Positions 2,174-8,325 of a stretch of 64,000 bases of DNA are shown piece after piece. The translations under genes were made by a program, and so were the position numbers. Source of the DNA: Chthonomonadales bacterium. Lineage in GTDB: Bacteria > Armatimonadota > Chthonomonadetes > Chthonomonadales > CAJBBX01. Positions within the stretch are counted from its first letter, which is position 1, and each line of letters starts with the position of its first letter. The notes under the pieces are model-generated. The model had not been told where the DNA came from and ran no database searches. It was given only the letters and a program-made list of their open reading frames with translations. Location: positions 6,289 to 70,288 of the forward strand of contig JADLGO010000064.1 in assembly GCA_020849275.1 (NCBI GenBank). The letters run 5' to 3'.

Positions 2174-3403
2174 TCAGCGCGGGCCGGCGTGGCTCGCGTT
2201 GAAGGCCGCGATACGCTTCATGAGCGCCGGGTGCGACTCGGCGGTCACGTTGTTGGCCTTCTGCCAGGGGAAGTGCCAGGCCCAGACGGCGGCGAGCGAG
2301 CCGCCCTCGGCCTCCAGCAGGTCGATGGCGGCCGAGACGTAGCGCCCCTGGCGGTCCTCGGCCAGCGTCGGCCTCGAGTTTCCGAGCTCGCCCACGAAGA
2401 TGGGCACGCGCGCCGCGCGGGCGCAACGCACTCGGGCGCGCAGCGCCTCAAGCGAGCTTGGCACGCCCATGTTCTCCTCGGCGTCGCTCTCCGTGAGGCT
2501 GCCGTAGTGGTGGATGGAGAGCAGGTCGAGCGGCTCCGGCTGCTGGGTGAGCAGGCTCGCGAGGTTCTGGCGGAGAGTGTCCCGTGTCCACACCTGCCTG
2601 GGGAAGCTCTCGCGCAGGCTGACACTGGTGGGGCGCGGCCCGGCGTCGCCGCTGGTGACGAGGTGGTTGGCGTCGATGCTCTTGATGAAGGCGGTCATGT
2701 CGGCGTAGAAGCGCAGGATGTCGGCCGTGGTCAGGCTGTCGGCCGCGTTCCACTTGCTCTTGTGCCAGGGGCCGTCCATCACGCCGGGGCCGGGCGCGTC
2801 GCGGCCCTCCGAGTTGACGTCGGCGGCCAGGCAGAGCTCGTTGCAGATCTCCCATGCCAGCACGTTGGTGTCGTCGCGGTAGCGTGAGACGATCTCGCGC
2901 GCGTAGCGGCGCATGGCGGCGTAGGTGCGCGAGCGCGGGTCGGCGATCGCGCTGCAGTCTTCCTCGCAGAGCAGCGGCCACATGGATGCGTTGAAGAAGA
3001 TGCTGGGCACCAGCCGCACGCCGCTGCGACGGCAGAGCGCGAACACCTCGTCCATGCGAGCCCAGTAGGTCGTGGGGTCGTCCCAATACAGGCGCATGTC
3101 CTTCGGCCAGAACCCGGTGGCCCAGAAGCGGATGAAGGCGATGCGCTGCTTCGCCGCGCTGCGCACGGCCTCCTCCGCGCTCCGGCGGGCGGTCCGGGCG
3201 CTGCCGTGGGTCTCCTCGAGGTGCAGGCCGATGCCGGCGTAGTCGGTGAAGAGGCCGGGCGCGTTGACGCCGATGGCTCGGTACTCGCGTCCATCGAGCA
3301 TGAGCCGCGCCCCGTCGCGCGTCACGAACCCGGGCGCGCCGTGGGCCGCGCTCGCGGCGGCGAGGATCGCCGCGGCGGCGAGCGCGGCGCTGGTGATCGT
3401 CAT
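2174..3403 (-). CDS. Secreted clan GH-A (GH5-like) glycoside hydrolase
   Basis: Track ORF 2174..3433 trimmed to the ATG at 3401-3403, with GGAGG 6 nt upstream. Signal peptide MTITSAALAAAAILAAASAAHG. Acid/base-like motif VLAWEICNE and nucleophile-like motif VPIFVGELG. Confidence 0.75.
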   Translation of the reverse strand: MTITSAALAAAAILAAASAAHGAPGFVTRDGARLMLDGREYRAIGVNAPGLFTDYAGIGLHLEETHGSARTARRSAEEAVRSAAKQRIAFIRFWATGFWPKDMRLYWDDPTTYWARMDEVFALCRRSGVRLVPSIFFNASMWPLLCEEDCSAIADPRSRTYAAMRRYAREIVSRYRDDTNVLAWEICNELCLAADVNSEGRDAPGPGVMDGPWHKSKWNAADSLTTADILRFYADMTAFIKSIDANHLVTSGDAGPRPTSVSLRESFPRQVWTRDTLRQNLASLLTQQPEPLDLLSIHHYGSLTESDAEENMGVPSSLEALRARVRCARAARVPIFVGELGNSRPTLAEDRQGRYVSAAIDLLEAEGGSLAAVWAWHFPWQKANNVTAESHPALMKRIAAFNASHAGPR

Positions 3404-3434: not shown

Positions 3435-3468
3435 TCGCGCGCCGGCCTCGTCGCTCCTGCCGCGAGCG
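3435..3468. repeat. Left copy of 34-bp direct repeat TCGCGCGCCGGCCTCGTC(G)CTCCTGCCGCGAGCG
   Basis: Read directly. Identical to 6011-6044 except position 19 (G here, C there). Lies 32 nt upstream of the GH5-like start on the minus strand. Confidence 0.9.
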
Positions 3469-3705
3469 CCGCTTCCGACCTGGTTGGCTCCTGTGCGCGA
3501 CCTCACCCCGTCGGGCTCACAGCGACGGTATGCGCAGGCAGTTCGGCGAGACCGCACGGCATAGAGGCTGGTTTCGGAGGACGACTGGAAGCCAGAGCGC
3601 GTGGATCCCTTGTGGTCGTCGGCACCGTGACTGGTCGACGCTCACGAGCATCAGACTACCCCCGCCGACCTCCTTGTACTGCGGTCAAAGGCTGCGCTGC
3701 CCCAG

Positions 3706-4491
3706 CTATGCAGGAGGCGGTACGCTCCATACGTGCAGGCGGTTCTCGAAGCCGCTCTCGACCATCCAGATCTCGTCCTCGCCGTTGACGACCTCCAGGA
3801 TGGCGCGAACAAAGAGCTTCTCGAAGAAGAACGCTACCTGCCCAGCCTCCGCTGCGCTCTCGCACGGGAATATGAACCGCGTGACGGCGGTCGTCTCATC
3901 AATCAGGTAGCGCGACGGATCGGTCAACGCCTCCTGTCTGGGCTTGAGGCCTCCCGCGCGGAAACGCCCGCTTACATGGTAGATCGAATACCCACCGAAC
4001 TTGCGCCCGATCCACTCGAGGACACCCTGTCTGTACTTATCATTATCTGCTTCATCGCGTGGAAACACCTTCTCAATGTCCTTCTGAGAGATCGTATCGA
4101 GTTGTACGTCGAGGGTGTCCTTATAGAATAGCGAGTCGAGAACACCGCGAAGCGCGTTTTCGTTCGAGAGTGGCATAAAGAACTCGTAGATACGAACGAT
4201 GGTGTGTACATTGTGCTTATAGATCTCAACTGCACGCCGCACCTGAGTCACATGTCGCTGAAAGGAGGACCAATCCGCGAAGCGGCTGAAGGCGTCACTA
4301 ACCCGAAAGGCAACTTTGTTCCCATCAACCTCCAGAACCAGTCGGAGAAACTGTTTGGACCAGTACGTAGCAAAGCTTGTTACACTCCAGTCAGTCTTAT
4401 CCCGTAAGTCCTCCTTCTTGAAAGGCTTCTTTGAATTCCAATGCTCAACTAGAAACTCAAATGCTCTGCGCTGATTGGTGTCAGAAGGCAT
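3706..4491 (-). CDS. Hypothetical protein (261 aa), third gene of the cassette operon; no family recognised
   Basis: ATG at 4489-4491 with GAGGGA 6 nt upstream, 24 nt after the methyltransferase stop. This is the lowest-GC gene in the window. Non-repetitive, balanced amino-acid composition (MPSDTNQRRAFEFLVEHWNSKKPFKKEDLRDK...), so it looks like real coding sequence. Confidence 0.75.
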   Translation of the reverse strand: MPSDTNQRRAFEFLVEHWNSKKPFKKEDLRDKTDWSVTSFATYWSKQFLRLVLEVDGNKVAFRVSDAFSRFADWSSFQRHVTQVRRAVEIYKHNVHTIVRIYEFFMPLSNENALRGVLDSLFYKDTLDVQLDTISQKDIEKVFPRDEADNDKYRQGVLEWIGRKFGGYSIYHVSGRFRAGGLKPRQEALTDPSRYLIDETTAVTRFIFPCESAAEAGQVAFFFEKLFVRAILEVVNGEDEIWMVESGFENRLHVWSVPPPA

Positions 4492-4515
4492 GGTGAGTCC
4501 CTCGATTAGCTTGCT

Positions 4516-5400
4516 CTACCCCATCGACCTATCCGTGCATTCCGGAGGATAGTTGCGGATGATCAACTCTGGGACCTTACCCCGCGCATCGGCCTTGGAA
4601 TTGACTGTCCGCGTCGCGAAGACGCATTCGACATCGCCATCGCGATCACCGCCATAGTGGCTATAGAGCTGCCGGATCAGCGGTGTGTCCGAGTTTGAGA
4701 GCATCGCATAGGTGCCTCGATTGGTGAGATCATCGAAGACGTCGCGGAGCCGAGTCTGGTCTGCTTCTCCGAAGCCTGTGTGGTGATACGCAGTGAACCG
4801 CGAGGTCGCTGATACGGGGTGATACGGTGGATCGAGGTAGACCATGTCGTCTTTACGCGGTTCCGCGAGTACCTCGGAGAACGGCGCTGTACGGATCTCG
4901 ACTCCTTGAAGGACCCTCGCGGCGGCGCGCAGATTGGCCTCATCGACGATGGCGGGGCGCCGATGGCGACCGAATGGAACATTGAACCGGCCAGATCGGT
5001 TCTCGCGGTAGAGGCCGTTGTAGCAGGTCTTGTTCAGATAGATGACGCGCGCCGCGCGAGCGGCGATGTCGAGCGTACTCGCGTCTTTGTCCCGGATCCC
5101 ATAGTAGTAGGCTTCCTCGTACCGGTGCTTCCGGAGTTCCTCAATCACGAGGTCCACCCGGTCGCGCAGGGCGAGGTAAACATCCACGAGGGCCTGGTTC
5201 ACGTCCGATAGAAGCGCGTGCCGGAGCCTGCCCAGCGATGCCAACTCGAAGAAGAGCGCCCCGCCACCCACGAATGGCTCGAAATAACGGTCGAACGTCG
5301 ATGGCACGCGCGCGATTAGCTCGGAGAGGAGTTGGCCTTTGCCTCCTGCCCATTTGAGCACGGGGCGGGCCCGCGGCGCACCATTCGACTCATGTGGCAT
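4516..5400 (-). CDS. Dam/D12-class N6-adenine DNA methyltransferase (alpha-type motif order)
   Basis: LKWAGGKGQLL, the SAM motif YFEPFVGGGALFF, then the catalytic VYLDPPY near the C-terminal third. ATG at 5398-5400 overlaps the upstream nuclease-like ORF by 11 nt. Confidence 0.9.
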   Translation of the reverse strand: MPHESNGAPRARPVLKWAGGKGQLLSELIARVPSTFDRYFEPFVGGGALFFELASLGRLRHALLSDVNQALVDVYLALRDRVDLVIEELRKHRYEEAYYYGIRDKDASTLDIAARAARVIYLNKTCYNGLYRENRSGRFNVPFGRHRRPAIVDEANLRAAARVLQGVEIRTAPFSEVLAEPRKDDMVYLDPPYHPVSATSRFTAYHHTGFGEADQTRLRDVFDDLTNRGTYAMLSNSDTPLIRQLYSHYGGDRDGDVECVFATRTVNSKADARGKVPELIIRNYPPECTDRSMG

Positions 5401-5794
5401 TGGGCTCTAGTCCGAAGAAGAGGGCGAGCCAATCGCCCAGGTCAGCGAGGTCAAGCACCTTCCCAGTCGACAACAGATAGCCTCGCATATTGGCCGAGAA
5501 CCCGGGACCCGCGATGACCACGATCCCTCGGATTGGCCATGCTGCAATGTCGTTGAGCACGGCGGCTATCTTCTCCTCCGCCGACCCCGAAGTGGCCTGG
5601 AACTTGCACTCAACGCCCAGTGCCAGGCGAGTCGTCGGGTGAGTCAGCACGACGTCGATGTAGCGCACCGCGCCCCACACGCGGCGACCGACCCTAACCT
5701 CGATCCTGACTTCGAGGCCGAGGCGCTCGCCCAAGTATACAACCGTCTGCCTCAGGCCGCTCCCACTACTCACCGCCGCAGCTCCCCCAGGCAT
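5390..5794 (-). CDS. Small PD-(D/E)XK-type nuclease-like protein (134 aa), first gene of the cassette operon
   Basis: Track ORF 5390..5827 (TTG) trimmed to the ATG at 5792-5794, with GGAGGGA 6 nt upstream. Motif arrangement is RYIDVVL...(14 aa)...LGVECKF, i.e. D...ExK, followed by SGSAEEK. From memory this resembles the catalytic core of DpnII/MboI-family enzymes; this is unverified. Confidence 0.6.
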   Translation of the reverse strand: MPGGAAAVSSGSGLRQTVVYLGERLGLEVRIEVRVGRRVWGAVRYIDVVLTHPTTRLALGVECKFQATSGSAEEKIAAVLNDIAAWPIRGIVVIAGPGFSANMRGYLLSTGKVLDLADLGDWLALFFGLEPNAT

Positions 5795-6010
5795 CGGCGC
5801 TCCCTCCGTTCGCGTCATCTCCAGCAACGCAAGTCGTTACGTGGGCACCGCGATCGCTGGCGCCGAGAGCGCGGAGTTGCTCCGCTAGGGAATCGTAGCA
5901 CAGGCTGGCAGGTCCGCGACGCCCTACGCGCGTGTAGCTCGTAGGCGAGCCCGACTCGAGCCTGGCCCTGATGTCGTCACATCCCTGCGCGCGGGCCAAC
6001 ATCCGCGTTT

Positions 6011-6044
6011 TCGCGCGCCGGCCTCGTCCCTCCTGCCGCGAGCG
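6011..6044. repeat. Right copy of 34-bp direct repeat
   Basis: TCGCGCGCCGGCCTCGTC(C)CTCCTGCCGCGAGCG, read directly. Lies about 120 nt upstream of the 6163 start. Confidence 0.9.
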
Positions 6045-6162: not shown

Positions 6163-8325
6163 ATGGAGGCCATGCTCACTCCCCGAGGCGTCCGCCGCGC
6201 CGGGCGCGCTGCCCTGCTCGCCCTGGCGGCGCTGGCGGCGCTGGCCGCGCTGCCCGCCGGGCCGTCGCGGGCCGCGCCCCCGCCGCCCGCGGGCAGGCCG
6301 CTACGCGTGGAGAACGCGTGGGTGCGCGTGGAGGCCGACCTGGCGAACGGATCCATTCTCCGCGTCCTCGACCGCGAGGGCGGCGTGGACCTCGCCGCCG
6401 ACCCCGCCCTGGCCGACAGCTTCCGCCTTCTACTGCGGCTGCCGGGCGGCCGGCGCCTCTGGGTGCGGGGGCGCGGGCAGGCGCTCTCCGCCGCGGAGCC
6501 GCGCGAGGGTGGCTTCGCGCTGCTCTGGAACGGGCCGCTGCGAGACGAGGCCGGCGGCGCGCACGCGATCGCGGCGCGCATGGGCGTCCGCCTTCGGGGC
6601 CGCTCCGTGCGCTTCGACTTCGCGCTGGACAACCGCTCGCGCGCCGTGGTGGAGGAGGTGTGGTACCCCGTGCTGGGCGGCTTCAGCCGCTTCGGCCCGT
6701 CGGCCGACGGCGCGACGCCGTCCACGCGCGAGCGGGCGGTCATCGACACGCCTCCGTGGATCAAGCCGCTCACGCTGCCTTTTGGCGAGCTCACGCCGCT
6801 CTACCCGGGCCAGCTCCAGATGGGGTTCGTAAGCGTGACGAACCCCGCCATCCGGCGCGGCCTCTACATCGGCTCGCACGATGTGACGCCCAGGCTGAAG
6901 GCCTTTCGTTTCGCCGAGGCGCGCAATGGGGACGCTGCCGATATCGTGGCCCAGCTCGTCCACTTTCCGTTCACCCGGCCGGGCGCTCGCTTCTCGGCGT
7001 CGCCGCTCGTGCTGCGCTTCCACGCCGGCGGCTGGCGTGAGGCCGGAGGCGTCTATCGCGACTGGTTCGTGCGCACCTTCGGCCTGGCCGACCCGCGCCG
7101 CGACTGGATCCGCCGCCAGGGCTTCTTCGTGATGACGATGTTCATGCTGCCCGAGGGCAACGTCAACTACCGATTCCGCGACATCGCGCGCTGGGCCCGC
7201 GCCGCCCGCGACTACGGCGTGCGCGCGGTGCAGATCGCCGGCTGGCAGTGCGGCGGCCACGACAACGGGTACCCGCTCTACACGCCCGACCCGCGGCTGG
7301 GAACCTGGAAGGAGCTCGAGGAGGGTATTCGCGCCTGCCATCGGATGGGTGTGCGGGTCTATTTCTTCGTCAACATCCAGCCGGCCATGCTGGACATCGC
7401 CTGGTACCGTCGCGAGCTCGAGGGCTACGCGGCCGTCAGCCGCCGGGGAGATCCCTACTGGATCGCTGGCTGGGGCATGGGCACCCTGGCCTCCCGCATG
7501 GGCCTTACCACGCCGCAGATGGCCTTCCTGGATCCCGCGTTCCCGGCCTTCCGGCGCGCGCTCGTGCGCGACTTTCGGCGCCTCGCCGAGGTCGGCGCCG
7601 ACGGCATCCATATTGACAAGATGTTCCCCGCGCTGCTGGACATGAACCCGCGCGCCCCGCTCGGACCGGACCGCTCTACCTGGCAGGGCGCGCTCGACAC
7701 CATCCGCGACATCGCGCGAGCCTGCCGCGCCGTCCGTCCGGGCTTCGCCATCTCCAACGAGTGCAACTGGGACCGGGTGCTCACCTACGGCGCCGCCACC
7801 TGGTGGGCAGGCAACATGAGCAACGCGCGCGCCGTGTTTCCGGAGGTTGTGGAGACCGTGGGCCACTACCAGCCGTGGGACTACGCGGGGCTCAACAACG
7901 CGGTGCGCCTGGGCCACGCCGTGATGCTGGCGCCGCACCAGTTCAGCCGCGACATGCGCTGCGAGACATGGCGCACCGGCATGTCGCCCTATGTGCGCGA
8001 GCTGAAGCGGATCCGCGACCGCCTGGCGGAGATCGTCTTCCTCGGGGAGCCGCGCGAGCGCGGCGAGGCGCGCTTCGAGGGCCTGCCGAAGGACTCCGCG
8101 CTCGACTTCGCCGTCTATCGCGGCCCTCGCTCCGGACGCCGCGCCTGCATCGTCACCAACGGCGCCTCCGCGCCGCGCACCGTCACGTTCGTTGGCTTCG
8201 ATGGAGGCCCGGGTGGCCGCGTGCGCGTCCATCGCCCCTTCGAGCGGCCCGTTGAGGCGGCGCTGCCGGCCCGGCTGCGCCTGCCCGCCGAGGGCATCGC
8301 CTTCATCGTGGAGGTGGCGCCATGA
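6163..8325 (+). CDS. Exported glycoside-hydrolase-like TIM-barrel protein (DUF6259-like by recollection), paralog A
   Basis: Track ORF 5971..8325 trimmed. ATG 6163 has GGAGGAGG 10 nt upstream; ATG 6142 and 6172 are alternatives. Signal-like RRAGRAALLALAALAALAALPAG. Barrel-type motif VGADGIHIDKMF and an NE-containing strand GFAISNECNWD. Confidence 0.7.
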   Translation: MEAMLTPRGVRRAGRAALLALAALAALAALPAGPSRAAPPPPAGRPLRVENAWVRVEADLANGSILRVLDREGGVDLAADPALADSFRLLLRLPGGRRLWVRGRGQALSAAEPREGGFALLWNGPLRDEAGGAHAIAARMGVRLRGRSVRFDFALDNRSRAVVEEVWYPVLGGFSRFGPSADGATPSTRERAVIDTPPWIKPLTLPFGELTPLYPGQLQMGFVSVTNPAIRRGLYIGSHDVTPRLKAFRFAEARNGDAADIVAQLVHFPFTRPGARFSASPLVLRFHAGGWREAGGVYRDWFVRTFGLADPRRDWIRRQGFFVMTMFMLPEGNVNYRFRDIARWARAARDYGVRAVQIAGWQCGGHDNGYPLYTPDPRLGTWKELEEGIRACHRMGVRVYFFVNIQPAMLDIAWYRRELEGYAAVSRRGDPYWIAGWGMGTLASRMGLTTPQMAFLDPAFPAFRRALVRDFRRLAEVGADGIHIDKMFPALLDMNPRAPLGPDRSTWQGALDTIRDIARACRAVRPGFAISNECNWDRVLTYGAATWWAGNMSNARAVFPEVVETVGHYQPWDYAGLNNAVRLGHAVMLAPHQFSRDMRCETWRTGMSPYVRELKRIRDRLAEIVFLGEPRERGEARFEGLPKDSALDFAVYRGPRSGRRACIVTNGASAPRTVTFVGFDGGPGGRVRVHRPFERPVEAALPARLRLPAEGIAFIVEVAP

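Follow-up and report, generated by a model that had tools for sequence, protein, structure and literature searches.

Three closely linked genes occupy positions 3706 to 5794 on the minus strand of the window (the whole stretch of 64 kb of DNA that was analysed). The open reading frames of the original prediction were recovered at their coordinates and with their spacing: genes A and B share 11 nt (ATGCCACATGA) and a 24-nt gap lies ahead of gene C. All three genes are contained in an island bounded by a direct repeat, and the locus is composed of the following features:

3435-3468, no strand: left copy of a 34-bp direct repeat (TCGCGCGCCGGCCTCGTCGCTCCTGCCGCGAGCG), island boundary
3469-6010, no strand: inserted island of 2542 bp with genes A, B and C, GC 0.50-0.66 versus 0.72 for the host
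3706-4491, minus strand: gene C, 261 aa, unnamed family, predicted winged-helix-like N-domain and ferredoxin-fold (PII/SAM-lyase-like) C-domain
3724-4200, minus strand: residues 98-256 of C, beta-alpha-beta-beta-alpha-beta(-beta) domain interrupted by a helical insert (120-164)
4246-4491, minus strand: residues 1-82 of C, helix-strand-helix-helix-hairpin, winged-helix-like according to the AF2 model and alignments
4516-5400, minus strand: gene B, 294 aa, Dam-family (D12, alpha-class) N6-adenine DNA methyltransferase
5390-5794, minus strand: gene A, 134 aa, PF20472 (PDDEXK_11) minimal PD-(D/E)XK nuclease
5795-6010, minus strand: non-coding island DNA 5' of A, presumed operon promoter region
6011-6044, no strand: right copy of the 34-bp direct repeat

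Each start had been assigned its own Shine-Dalgarno sequence, which held for A (GGAGGG, 7 nt 5' of the ATG) and for C (GAGGGA, within the 24-nt B-C spacer) but not for B, where the signal is weak. A mechanical call extends the open reading frame of A back to a TTG at 5827; public gene calls give the 134-aa form. A scan of 5795-6010 covering sigma-70-type promoters found no match to the consensus, and the terminator-like sites returned by scanning were set aside as all were inside coding sequence.

The 34-bp repeat brackets the whole 2542-bp insert, a feature that the original prediction had overlooked. Its two copies are 33/34 identical and are the only ones in the 64 kb, the likeness between them stops sharply at either end, and none of 100 shuffled sequences contained two copies. 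Besides the three genes, the island comprises 237 bp of non-coding DNA downstream and 216 bp upstream of them; no integrase, transposase or tRNA was found within 3469-6010. It is flanked by divergent host genes, a DUF6259 gene and a GH5 cellulase gene whose end is at 3403. Insertion with long target duplication (duplication >30 bp, insert <20 kb) has been described as a pattern for R-M units (PMC2853133), and the present island agrees with it in its 34-bp repeat, its 2542-bp insert and its lack of a mobility gene. No empty insertion site was found: the flanking cellulase gene occurs on 16 contigs, and the island on every one of these. The insert's GC content is 9-18 points under that of the host and the proposed stepwise decrease along the operon is real, from 0.72 in the flanks to 0.63 in A, 0.61 in B and 0.54 in C. 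The mosaic origin deduced from these steps was nevertheless rejected, because C is GC-poorer than the DNA around it in all of the loci linked to a methyltransferase (32/32) and because all three genes lie here in a single repeat-bounded insert. GATC sites show no depletion in the window (observed/expected 0.94), which is uninformative since the insertion is recent.

The earlier assignment of gene B as a Dam/D12 methyltransferase was borne out by matches with PF02086 (1e-58) and TIGR00571 dam (1e-82), the FxGxG and DPPY motifs being visible in its translation. Among solved structures, its closest relative is DpnM (2dpm), an R-M enzyme, aligned over the full length (E 1.5e-66), ahead of E. coli Dam (E 4e-39); within PADLOC it matched generic methyltransferase models only. 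Both DpnM and Dam recognise GATC, and B may share this specificity, for which sequence is no certain guide.

Gene A had been described as nuclease-like, in agreement with its match to PF20472 PDDEXK_11 (2.7e-17, above the curated cut-off) and with its intact D...ExK site. Residues D47, E62 and K64 are invariant in an alignment of 41 sequences, as are Q66, E73, E74 and K75. Its AF2 model (pLDDT 86) matches the nuclease cores of AF1548, MspJI, NucS, Can2, Hjc and Ecl18kI, and this predicted structure, in which a restriction-endonuclease-like fold bears D...(D/E)xK, places A within the PD-(D/E)XK superfamily. Sequence searches with A matched neither a restriction-enzyme model nor any other component in PADLOC-DB v2, and recovered no restriction enzyme or other relative among solved structures (PDB). 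Neither A nor C matched PF04556 (the R.DpnII/MboI family) at E<=1, and MutH was not among the PDB sequence or fold matches of A. A literature search on PF20472/PDDEXK_11 found no description of such a system. To our knowledge, A, with 129-134 aa, is below the size of every known Type II enzyme. Should A serve as the nuclease in a GATC-type system, it would rank with the smallest known restriction enzymes, and its family, which comprises more than 1100 clusters at 90% identity from many phyla, would define a widespread R-M family.

The association of A with methyltransferases was evaluated on 27 metagenomic A loci having at least 1 kb of flanking sequence on each side. A D12 methyltransferase gene was directly beside A in 24 of them and a methyltransferase gene was within about 1.1 kb in all 27; A and Dam therefore form a recurrent two-gene module, also found in complete genomes, in which either gene order is seen and the genes often overlap. 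A-B pairs were GC-poorer than their flanks in 14/22 loci. Since A is also paired with a CcrM-like beta-class methyltransferase, GATC specificity is uncertain at the level of the family. C was detected in just 6/80 A loci (1/13 among those with at least 3 kb of flank) and is thus optional for A. The best reading of A and Dam is a compact DpnII-like Type II R-M system with a non-canonical nuclease. As A is not recognised by PADLOC models, a PADLOC-based screen would probably call its methyltransferase orphan.

Gene C had been considered impossible to place in any family. This holds for curated libraries, no match being obtained in Pfam, PADLOC, NCBIfam, PHROGs or the PDB sequences, but C does belong to a large and well-conserved unnamed family of about 500 clusters at 50% identity, which has no Pfam, PADLOC or NCBIfam name. 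A profile built from 55 sequences found no relative in the PDB, SAM lyases and PII proteins included. At the level of predicted structure (AF2 model, pLDDT 88), the sole PDB match below 1e-3 was a phage SAM lyase (6zm9, E 3.5e-4, probability 1.0), followed by PII/GlnK/CutA proteins (probability 0.9-0.99), and the BFVD matches (down to 8e-6) were small uncharacterised phage proteins, including some from podovirus-type phages. C resembles SAM lyases in fold alone (TM of 0.51-0.65 on the target): residues 98-256 adopt, in the AF2 model, the ferredoxin-like beta1-alpha1-beta2-beta3-alpha2-beta4 arrangement. The N-domain resembles a winged helix, an assignment made from the topology of the model only, and its third helix carries a TYWSKQ motif that is conserved only in methyltransferase-linked members.

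The family-wide invariant residues of C (E111, G167, Y168, S169, G175, R176, Y195, E199, T200, T201, A202, E238, W242 and E245) are all in the 98-256 domain. E199, found in all 82 sequences (100%), is located after the variable loop at 179-195; in the model and alignment, E199-T200-T201 come after this beta2-beta3 loop and N236/E238 are in the alpha2-beta4 loop. In SAM and SAM-AMP lyases, conserved Glu and Gln residues (E69/E71, Q104/Q108) hold the ligand (PMC7877911, PMC12255297), and E199 and N236/E238 of C may occupy the corresponding positions, on the basis of a topological match made without superposition. C does not display the features of PD-(D/E)XK enzymes, its AF2 topology being beta-alpha-beta-beta-alpha-beta, with no ExK motif and no nuclease among the top matches. 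A hidden PD-(D/E)XK, HNH, GIY-YIG or half-pipe enzyme was ruled out by the predicted topology and the Foldseek matches, and look-alikes of the DnaQ DxETTG, Y-family SIDE and GIY-YIG motifs, noticed by eye, did not fit in spacing and fold. SeqA was not found among the PDB sequence or fold matches.

C adjoins D12 or N6_N4 methyltransferase genes, whether or not A or an HNH protein is also encoded there, and usually precedes a fourth small protein, D, for which 591 homologues were collected; the best 120 of these 591 are unnamed and have no Pfam domain. D also occurs as a fusion partner of C or of D12 or N6_N4 methyltransferases, indicating that C is functionally tied to the methyltransferase. 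The only fusions of C are those with D and with one 355-aa N-terminal region (P0354), none of which has a Pfam match. The closest relatives of C are in C-D-Dam-A-(N6_N4 methyltransferase) cassettes within integrase or relaxase elements, beside genes for Mrr_cat, Mrr_N-kinase and reverse transcriptase; these fuller relatives of the cassette thus have an extra beta-class methyltransferase and reside in integrative or mobilisable elements next to Mrr-like genes. C is also found alone, in Chloroflexi and Spirochaetes: in 25/61 genomic loci (about 40%) it stands among housekeeping genes with no methyltransferase nearby. No riboswitch with a link to SAM was found 5' of solitary C genes, where cobalamin and c-di-GMP riboswitches and tRNA, all unrelated, were the only hits. 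A literature search on SAM lyases in defence islands gave no description of this system.

With moderate confidence, we favour an acquired cassette consisting of a compact DpnII-like Type II R-M system (A and B) and an optional accessory gene, C. Of the readings first proposed, the compact Type II R-M system with an accessory factor gave the best fit, given the recurrent A-Dam pair and the DpnM-like B. Methyltransferase motifs, an adjacent nuclease with an intact site, recurrent linkage and signs of mobility are all present; homology of A to a characterised restriction enzyme was not found in PADLOC, the PDB sequences or the DpnII family. This self-contained cassette would have been acquired horizontally, apparently by inserting between genes and duplicating a 34-bp target. 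B would then methylate adenine in GATC on host DNA, and an oligomer of A would cut the unmethylated sites of incoming DNA. C, an optional add-on in which a winged-helix-like DNA-binding module would be joined to a PII/SAM-lyase-like ferredoxin-fold domain, has its invariant residues at positions that may correspond to those where SAM lyases and PII proteins hold a nucleoside ligand. It would most likely bind, or possibly cleave, SAM or a related adenosyl compound, thereby adjusting the balance of methylation and restriction or the expression of the system. Most probably, C serves as an accessory, perhaps with a link to SAM, and not as the nuclease.

The original prediction also offered C as the real effector and A as its helper. 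This was not supported, because A and its methyltransferase mostly occur without C and because the fold of C is SAM-lyase/PII-like and that of no known nuclease. The related idea that C (with D if present) is itself the restriction effector, combining a winged-helix reader with a catalytic domain whose fold would be new among restriction enzymes, is possible but rather unlikely. Its invariant acidic cluster (E111, D198, E199, E238, E245) would then perform metal-dependent cleavage or base excision, and A would be a second nuclease, independent or cooperating. Cassettes lacking A and any recognisable nuclease (methyltransferase-C-D in Pyrinomonadaceae, methyltransferase-C in Asgard archaea) do suggest that C may be an effector in its own right, and C resembles restriction genes in being located beside two unrelated methyltransferase classes. 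The retention of TYWSKQ, on the putative recognition helix, in the methyltransferase-linked subgroup and the foreign composition of C in every one of the 32 loci of this type point in the same direction. However, the fold is of the ligand-binding or lyase PII-like kind, with PabI, HNH, GIY-YIG and PLD not among the top matches, the Spirochaete members have no DNA-binding-like N-domain, and a lone restriction enzyme would be expected to be lethal in the 25 loci where C has no methyltransferase nearby. A hetero-complex in which A is the catalytic module and the methyltransferase (as in a split Type IIG-like enzyme) or C recognises DNA and recruits A seems improbable. The structural neighbours MspJI, Can2, NucS and R2 RLE depend on other domains for targeting, the A/B overlap suggests translational coupling, an HNH protein takes the place of A beside the methyltransferase and C in some cassettes, and the D-domain fusions suggest physical complexes. 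Against this, A is 60-70% identical although paired with both alpha- and beta-class methyltransferases, a conservation hard to reconcile with a specific A-methyltransferase complex, and most A loci are devoid of C.

The same 60-70% identity of A across phyla is unusually high for a restriction enzyme and argues against the R-M reading. It would suit a function in Dam-linked DNA maintenance rather than defence, with A as a methyl-directed nicking or repair nuclease (an analogue of MutH or Vsr) and C as a reader of the methylation state or a repair accessory. A-Dam pairs do occur amid housekeeping genes in Chloroflexi genomes, C is found between PcrA/UvrD and a NUDIX gene in one Anaerolineae clade, NucS/EndoMS is among the structural neighbours of A, and the overlap of the A and B genes recalls dcm-vsr, in which nuclease and methyltransferase genes overlap. 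We nevertheless regard this explanation as unlikely: the insertion in this window is recent, flanked by repeats and foreign in composition, and A-B pairs are foreign even amid housekeeping genes (GC 0.56 versus 0.65 in locus L086, 0.53 versus 0.62 in L090). In addition, the closest relatives are in mobile elements beside Mrr-type genes, B is closer to the R-M enzyme DpnM than to the orphan E. coli Dam, and the neighbours of solitary C are heterogeneous. An anti-restriction module of a mobile element, in which orphan methyltransferases would pre-protect the DNA and a SAM-lyase-like C would disable SAM-dependent host defences, is very improbable. The nearest structural match of C is indeed a phage anti-restriction SAM lyase, related cassettes directly follow a relaxase or integrase gene, and the PADLOC orphan-methyltransferase model scores nearly as high as the Type II methyltransferase model. 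Yet A and C were absent from 2.9 million viral contigs, 50,697 phage records and 72,556 plasmid records, a conserved nuclease gene with an intact site is tightly coupled to the methyltransferase, and a SAM lyase would starve the module's own methyltransferases.

The three genes most likely form an unusual restriction-modification variant with a new accessory family, C. The C/D module is the more interesting part of it, as a large unnamed family tied by gene order and fusion to two adenine methyltransferase classes, with a fold whose other known bearers are phage enzymes that overcome restriction by destroying SAM. For the C(+D) module, the third reading of the original prediction, a methylation-linked defence system of a new type, may still apply. 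If a cellular, DNA-binding C acts within R-M cassettes, this suggests that hosts also manipulate or monitor SAM in immunity. We tentatively propose, as a conceivable though unlikely case, that C and D represent an uncharacterised cellular family, DNA-tethered and SAM-lyase/PII-like, coupling the SAM pool to adenine methyltransferase-based immunity. C may then monitor SAM or break it down locally, depriving incoming DNA of rescue by methylation, or else halt restriction once a phage depletes SAM. This would constitute a small-molecule checkpoint within Type II R-M, with solitary paralogues in Chloroflexi and Spirochaetes having other roles.

Among known systems, the DpnII system of Streptococcus pneumoniae (DpnM, DpnA and R.DpnII, specific for GATC) is likewise a small mobile cassette, and B is a full-length homologue of DpnM. 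A counterpart of DpnA, a beta-class N6_N4 methyltransferase, is found in the fuller cassette relatives but not in this window. The nuclease of DpnII belongs to the R.DpnII/MboI family of about 288 aa, whereas a 134-aa PF20472 protein is found here, and DpnII has no equivalent of C or D. A shares the alpha-beta-beta-beta-alpha-beta core and D...ExK of minimal PD-(D/E)XK modules (AF1548/Mrr-like, Hjc and XisH proteins; domains of MspJI, NucS and Can2), but it is stand-alone, methyltransferase-linked and without sequence likeness to solved structures. The C-domain of C has the ferredoxin-like topology of phage SAM lyases (Svi3-3, T3 SAMase), SAM-AMP lyases and the PII-like superfamily. In contrast to SAM lyases, C is cellular and twice as large, with a 45-residue helical insert, a DNA-binding-like N-domain and no sequence similarity, and it is encoded beside SAM-consuming methyltransferases. 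Its layout, an N-terminal winged helix and a C-terminal ferredoxin-fold ligand-binding or oligomerisation domain, is similar to that of Lrp/AsnC-type regulators, although no Pfam HTH or AsnC match was obtained, and in some cassettes it comes first, upstream of the R-M genes, like the genes of R-M controller proteins. It is, however, much larger than controller proteins and also found without R-M genes, and it differs from both groups in an invariant acidic motif that looks catalytic or ligand-binding.

The three minus-strand open reading frames of the original prediction were confirmed at their places, with the 11-nt overlap and the 24-nt gap, and they were found between two direct copies of a 34-bp sequence that has no third copy in the 64-kb window:

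5794 to 5390, minus strand: gene A, small PD-(D/E)XK protein, 134 aa counted from the ATG
5400 to 4516, minus strand: gene B, Dam-family methyltransferase, 294 aa
4491 to 3706, minus strand: gene C, protein of 261 aa
3435-3468 and 6011-6044: copies of the 34-bp repeat, direct orientation, 33/34 identical

A GGAGGG Shine-Dalgarno sequence lies 7 nt upstream of the A start, the A/B overlap is ATGCCACATGA, and the spacer between B and C includes GAGGGA. Similarity between the repeat copies ends abruptly on either side, and they bracket the island exactly, the 2542 bp between them holding A, B, C and no other gene. The prediction was borne out as regards the operon, but these sharp edges had escaped it. 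The island is located between divergent host genes, for a GH5 cellulase on one side and a DUF6259 protein on the other, and shows the same pattern as the 'insertion with long target duplication' of R-M units (Furuta et al.; PMC2853133), with repeats above 30 bp, inserts below 20 kb and no mobility genes. The repeat looks like a long target duplication produced by insertion. No empty insertion site was found, all contigs with the cellulase also carrying the island.

GC content falls from about 72% in host DNA to 63% in A, 61% in B and 54% in C, a gradient formerly taken as a sign of a mosaic operon. This reading was rejected because C lies below its surroundings in 32/32 methyltransferase-linked and 13/16 solitary loci, so that low GC is a trait of its family. 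Over the whole window, CTAG is strongly rare (17 observed versus 99 expected under a Markov model), GTAC moderately rare (0.69) and GATC near expectation (0.94).

Protein A belongs to PF20472 (PDDEXK_11), a family for which literature searches retrieved no paper. Its 1151 homologous clusters have a typical length of 129 aa, with identities of 60-70% across Armatimonadota, Chloroflexota, Hydrogenedentota and others, and D47, E62, K64, Q66, E73, E74 and K75 are invariant. Its AF2 model (pLDDT 86) shows the restriction-endonuclease-like core in minimal form, closest to AF1548, VC1899, the R2 endonuclease domain, the MspJI nuclease domain, NucS/EndoMS, Can2, Hjc, XisH and Ecl18kI. The identity of B as a methyltransferase held in matches to PF02086 (1e-58) and TIGR00571 'dam' (1e-82). 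Its best solved relative, over the full length, is DpnM (E 1.5e-66), the methyltransferase partner in the DpnII R-M system of the pneumococcus, well ahead of E. coli Dam (4e-39); GATC specificity is therefore likely, judging from homology.

A D12 methyltransferase precedes or follows A in 80 metagenomic loci (A before B in 35, B before A in 22, and variants). Where both flanks reach at least 1 kb (27 loci), it directly adjoins A in 24, and in the other three a methyltransferase lies within about 1.1 kb. The pair is also present in complete genomes, including that of Promineifilum, where it is compositionally foreign (GC 0.56 versus 0.65), and in 14 of 22 pairs GC was lower than in the flanks by more than 2 points. 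A nuclease-methyltransferase pair that recurs and moves in this way has the appearance of a Type II R-M system. The very small size of A, its unusual conservation and the lack of a match to PADLOC restriction models speak against this reading; its nuclease family is uncharacterised.

Protein C had been considered an orphan. No homologue bears a name or a Pfam domain, but the family is large, with 848 clusters at 90% identity and 500 at 50%, nearly all of 255-300 aa. Its AF2 model (pLDDT 88) has two parts. Residues 1-82 (helix-strand-helix-helix-hairpin) can be read, from topology, as winged-helix-like, and residues 98-256 form a ferredoxin-like beta-alpha-beta-beta-alpha-beta(-beta) domain with a helical insert. 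The latter is a separable module, since P0354, a homologue of 541 aa, joins it to an unrelated 355-residue N-terminal region without Pfam match. The sole PDB structural match below 1e-3 was the phage SAM lyase Svi3-3 (6zm9), followed by PII, GlnK, CutA and NIF3-insert proteins, and the best BFVD matches were uncharacterised phage proteins of 100-150 aa, podovirus-type phages included (down to 8e-6, TM on target up to 0.65). No nuclease fold appeared among these PDB and BFVD matches, and a profile search of PDB sequences gave no sequence-level signal.

In an alignment of 82 members from all clades, positions conserved at 90% or more were all at residue 77 or later, nearly all within the ferredoxin-like domain; key residues are E111, G167-Y168-S169, G175-R176, Y195, E199-T200-T201-A202, E238, W242 and E245. 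SAM/SAM-AMP lyases hold their ligand through two conserved residues, a Glu closing the beta2-beta3 'T-loop' on its C-terminal side and a Gln of the alpha2-beta4 'B-loop' (PMC7877911, PMC12255297). E199 of C, right behind the variable beta2-beta3 loop, and N236 and E238, within the alpha2-beta4 loop, occupy like positions in the model, a suggestive correspondence that is topological only.

An adenine methyltransferase, of the D12 or the unrelated N6_N4 class, lay within 1.6 kb of C in 35 of the 61 genomic loci whose flanks were long enough. Several arrangements were found, D being a further small protein:

Methyltransferase-A-C-D: Acidobacteriota, Binatia, delta- and gammaproteobacteria
A-methyltransferase with C nearby: the window, L010, L016
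Methyltransferase-HNH-C: some Anaerolineales
Methyltransferase-C-D or methyltransferase-C, without any nuclease: Pyrinomonadaceae, Asgard archaea

In the other 25, mostly from Chloroflexi and Spirochaetes, C is solitary among assorted housekeeping genes, with a PcrA/UvrD-C-NUDIX arrangement in one Anaerolineae clade. Solitary proteins do not conserve the N-terminal motif TYWSKQ, and those of spirochaetes lack the N-domain. Near solitary C genes, the PcrA/UvrD helicase upstream of C in L075 (467-3751) bears an intein (Intein_splicing/Hint matches inside the helicase domain), and in L066 (7759-8020, minus strand, and 3718-3791) there are tandem c-di-GMP-I riboswitches, and a tRNA gene immediately upstream of C. 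In L043 (5636-5824), the gene after C is served by a cobalamin riboswitch that lies shortly downstream of C. About 0.5 kb downstream from its methyltransferase-C-D cassette, L036 carries a second, distant C-like ORF of 293 aa (6370-7251, minus strand, E 3e-6 against the C profile). The D12 methyltransferase of L003 (4856-5576) is in two fragments, with A and C intact, and C is split in L055 and L077 (around 5001-5935); these cases, compatible with real decay or long-read indel errors, were left out of the evidence. In Asgard archaea (Promethearchaeota), a conserved ORF of 179-189 aa in convergent orientation comes after the Dam-C pair; it has no family assignment, with only a weak Abi_alpha hint (E 0.0096):

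L038 5781-6350, minus strand
L039 5882-6421, minus strand
L041 5920-6459, minus strand
L084 5888-6457, minus strand

D, an ORF of 95-135 aa, directly follows C in 19 of the genomic loci examined (L012 5862-6263, L001 6795-7130 and 17 others). It has no Pfam or NCBIfam name, its alignment shows WLRxNGY...RRNWWExLAG...FPVL, and none of its 591 homologues was named among the matches listed. P0290, P0320 and P0361 carry it as a C-terminal extension of C, and elsewhere it is fused to either end of D12 methyltransferases and to one N6_N4 methyltransferase (L016, L010, L124, L132). Such alternative fusions are an argument for joint action of C, D and the methyltransferase. D is absent from the window. 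The closest relatives of its C (56% identity) belong to five-gene cassettes, C-D-Dam-A followed by a convergent N6_N4 methyltransferase (L178 4270-8534; L180 5001-8504), inside integrase- or relaxase-bearing elements and beside Mrr_cat, Mrr_N-kinase and reverse-transcriptase genes, so that the window represents a reduced form of a larger mobile module. An unnamed 169-aa ORF precedes C in L178.

The reading we favor, with about an even chance of being right as a whole, is that A and B would form a compact Type II R-M pair of the DpnII kind, its nuclease minimal and non-canonical, and that C would be an accessory protein with a functional tie to the methyltransferase, the conserved domain of C most likely binding, and perhaps cleaving, SAM or a related adenosyl compound. 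Gene structure, family assignments, the fold, the gene associations and the signature of insertion were shown directly, whereas specificity, cleavage and the C ligand are inferred. 'Compact Type II R-M plus accessory' was accordingly the best-supported part of the original prediction, and its proposal of C as the effector persists only as the main rival. In this rival, C together with D would itself be an effector with a new fold. The cassettes without nuclease fit it; the fold of C and its homologues that are solitary or devoid of the N-domain make it rather unlikely.

A housekeeping, Dam-linked repair role is decidedly unlikely, and recruitment of A into a hetero-complex by B or C less likely still. 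An anti-restriction role for a mobile element is very improbable; neither A nor C was found in phage, plasmid and viral-contig collections. A DNA-tethered SAM-lyase/PII-like checkpoint as a part of R-M systems is a speculative idea, the most novel one considered and doubtful at present, which would be of high interest if true. R-M-like systems are a known kind; the nuclease family of A, however, is uncharacterised and not recognised by PADLOC, and C and D are unnamed families whose fold had not earlier been linked to cellular R-M cassettes. The two-methyltransferase layout of the five-gene module recalls that of DpnII.
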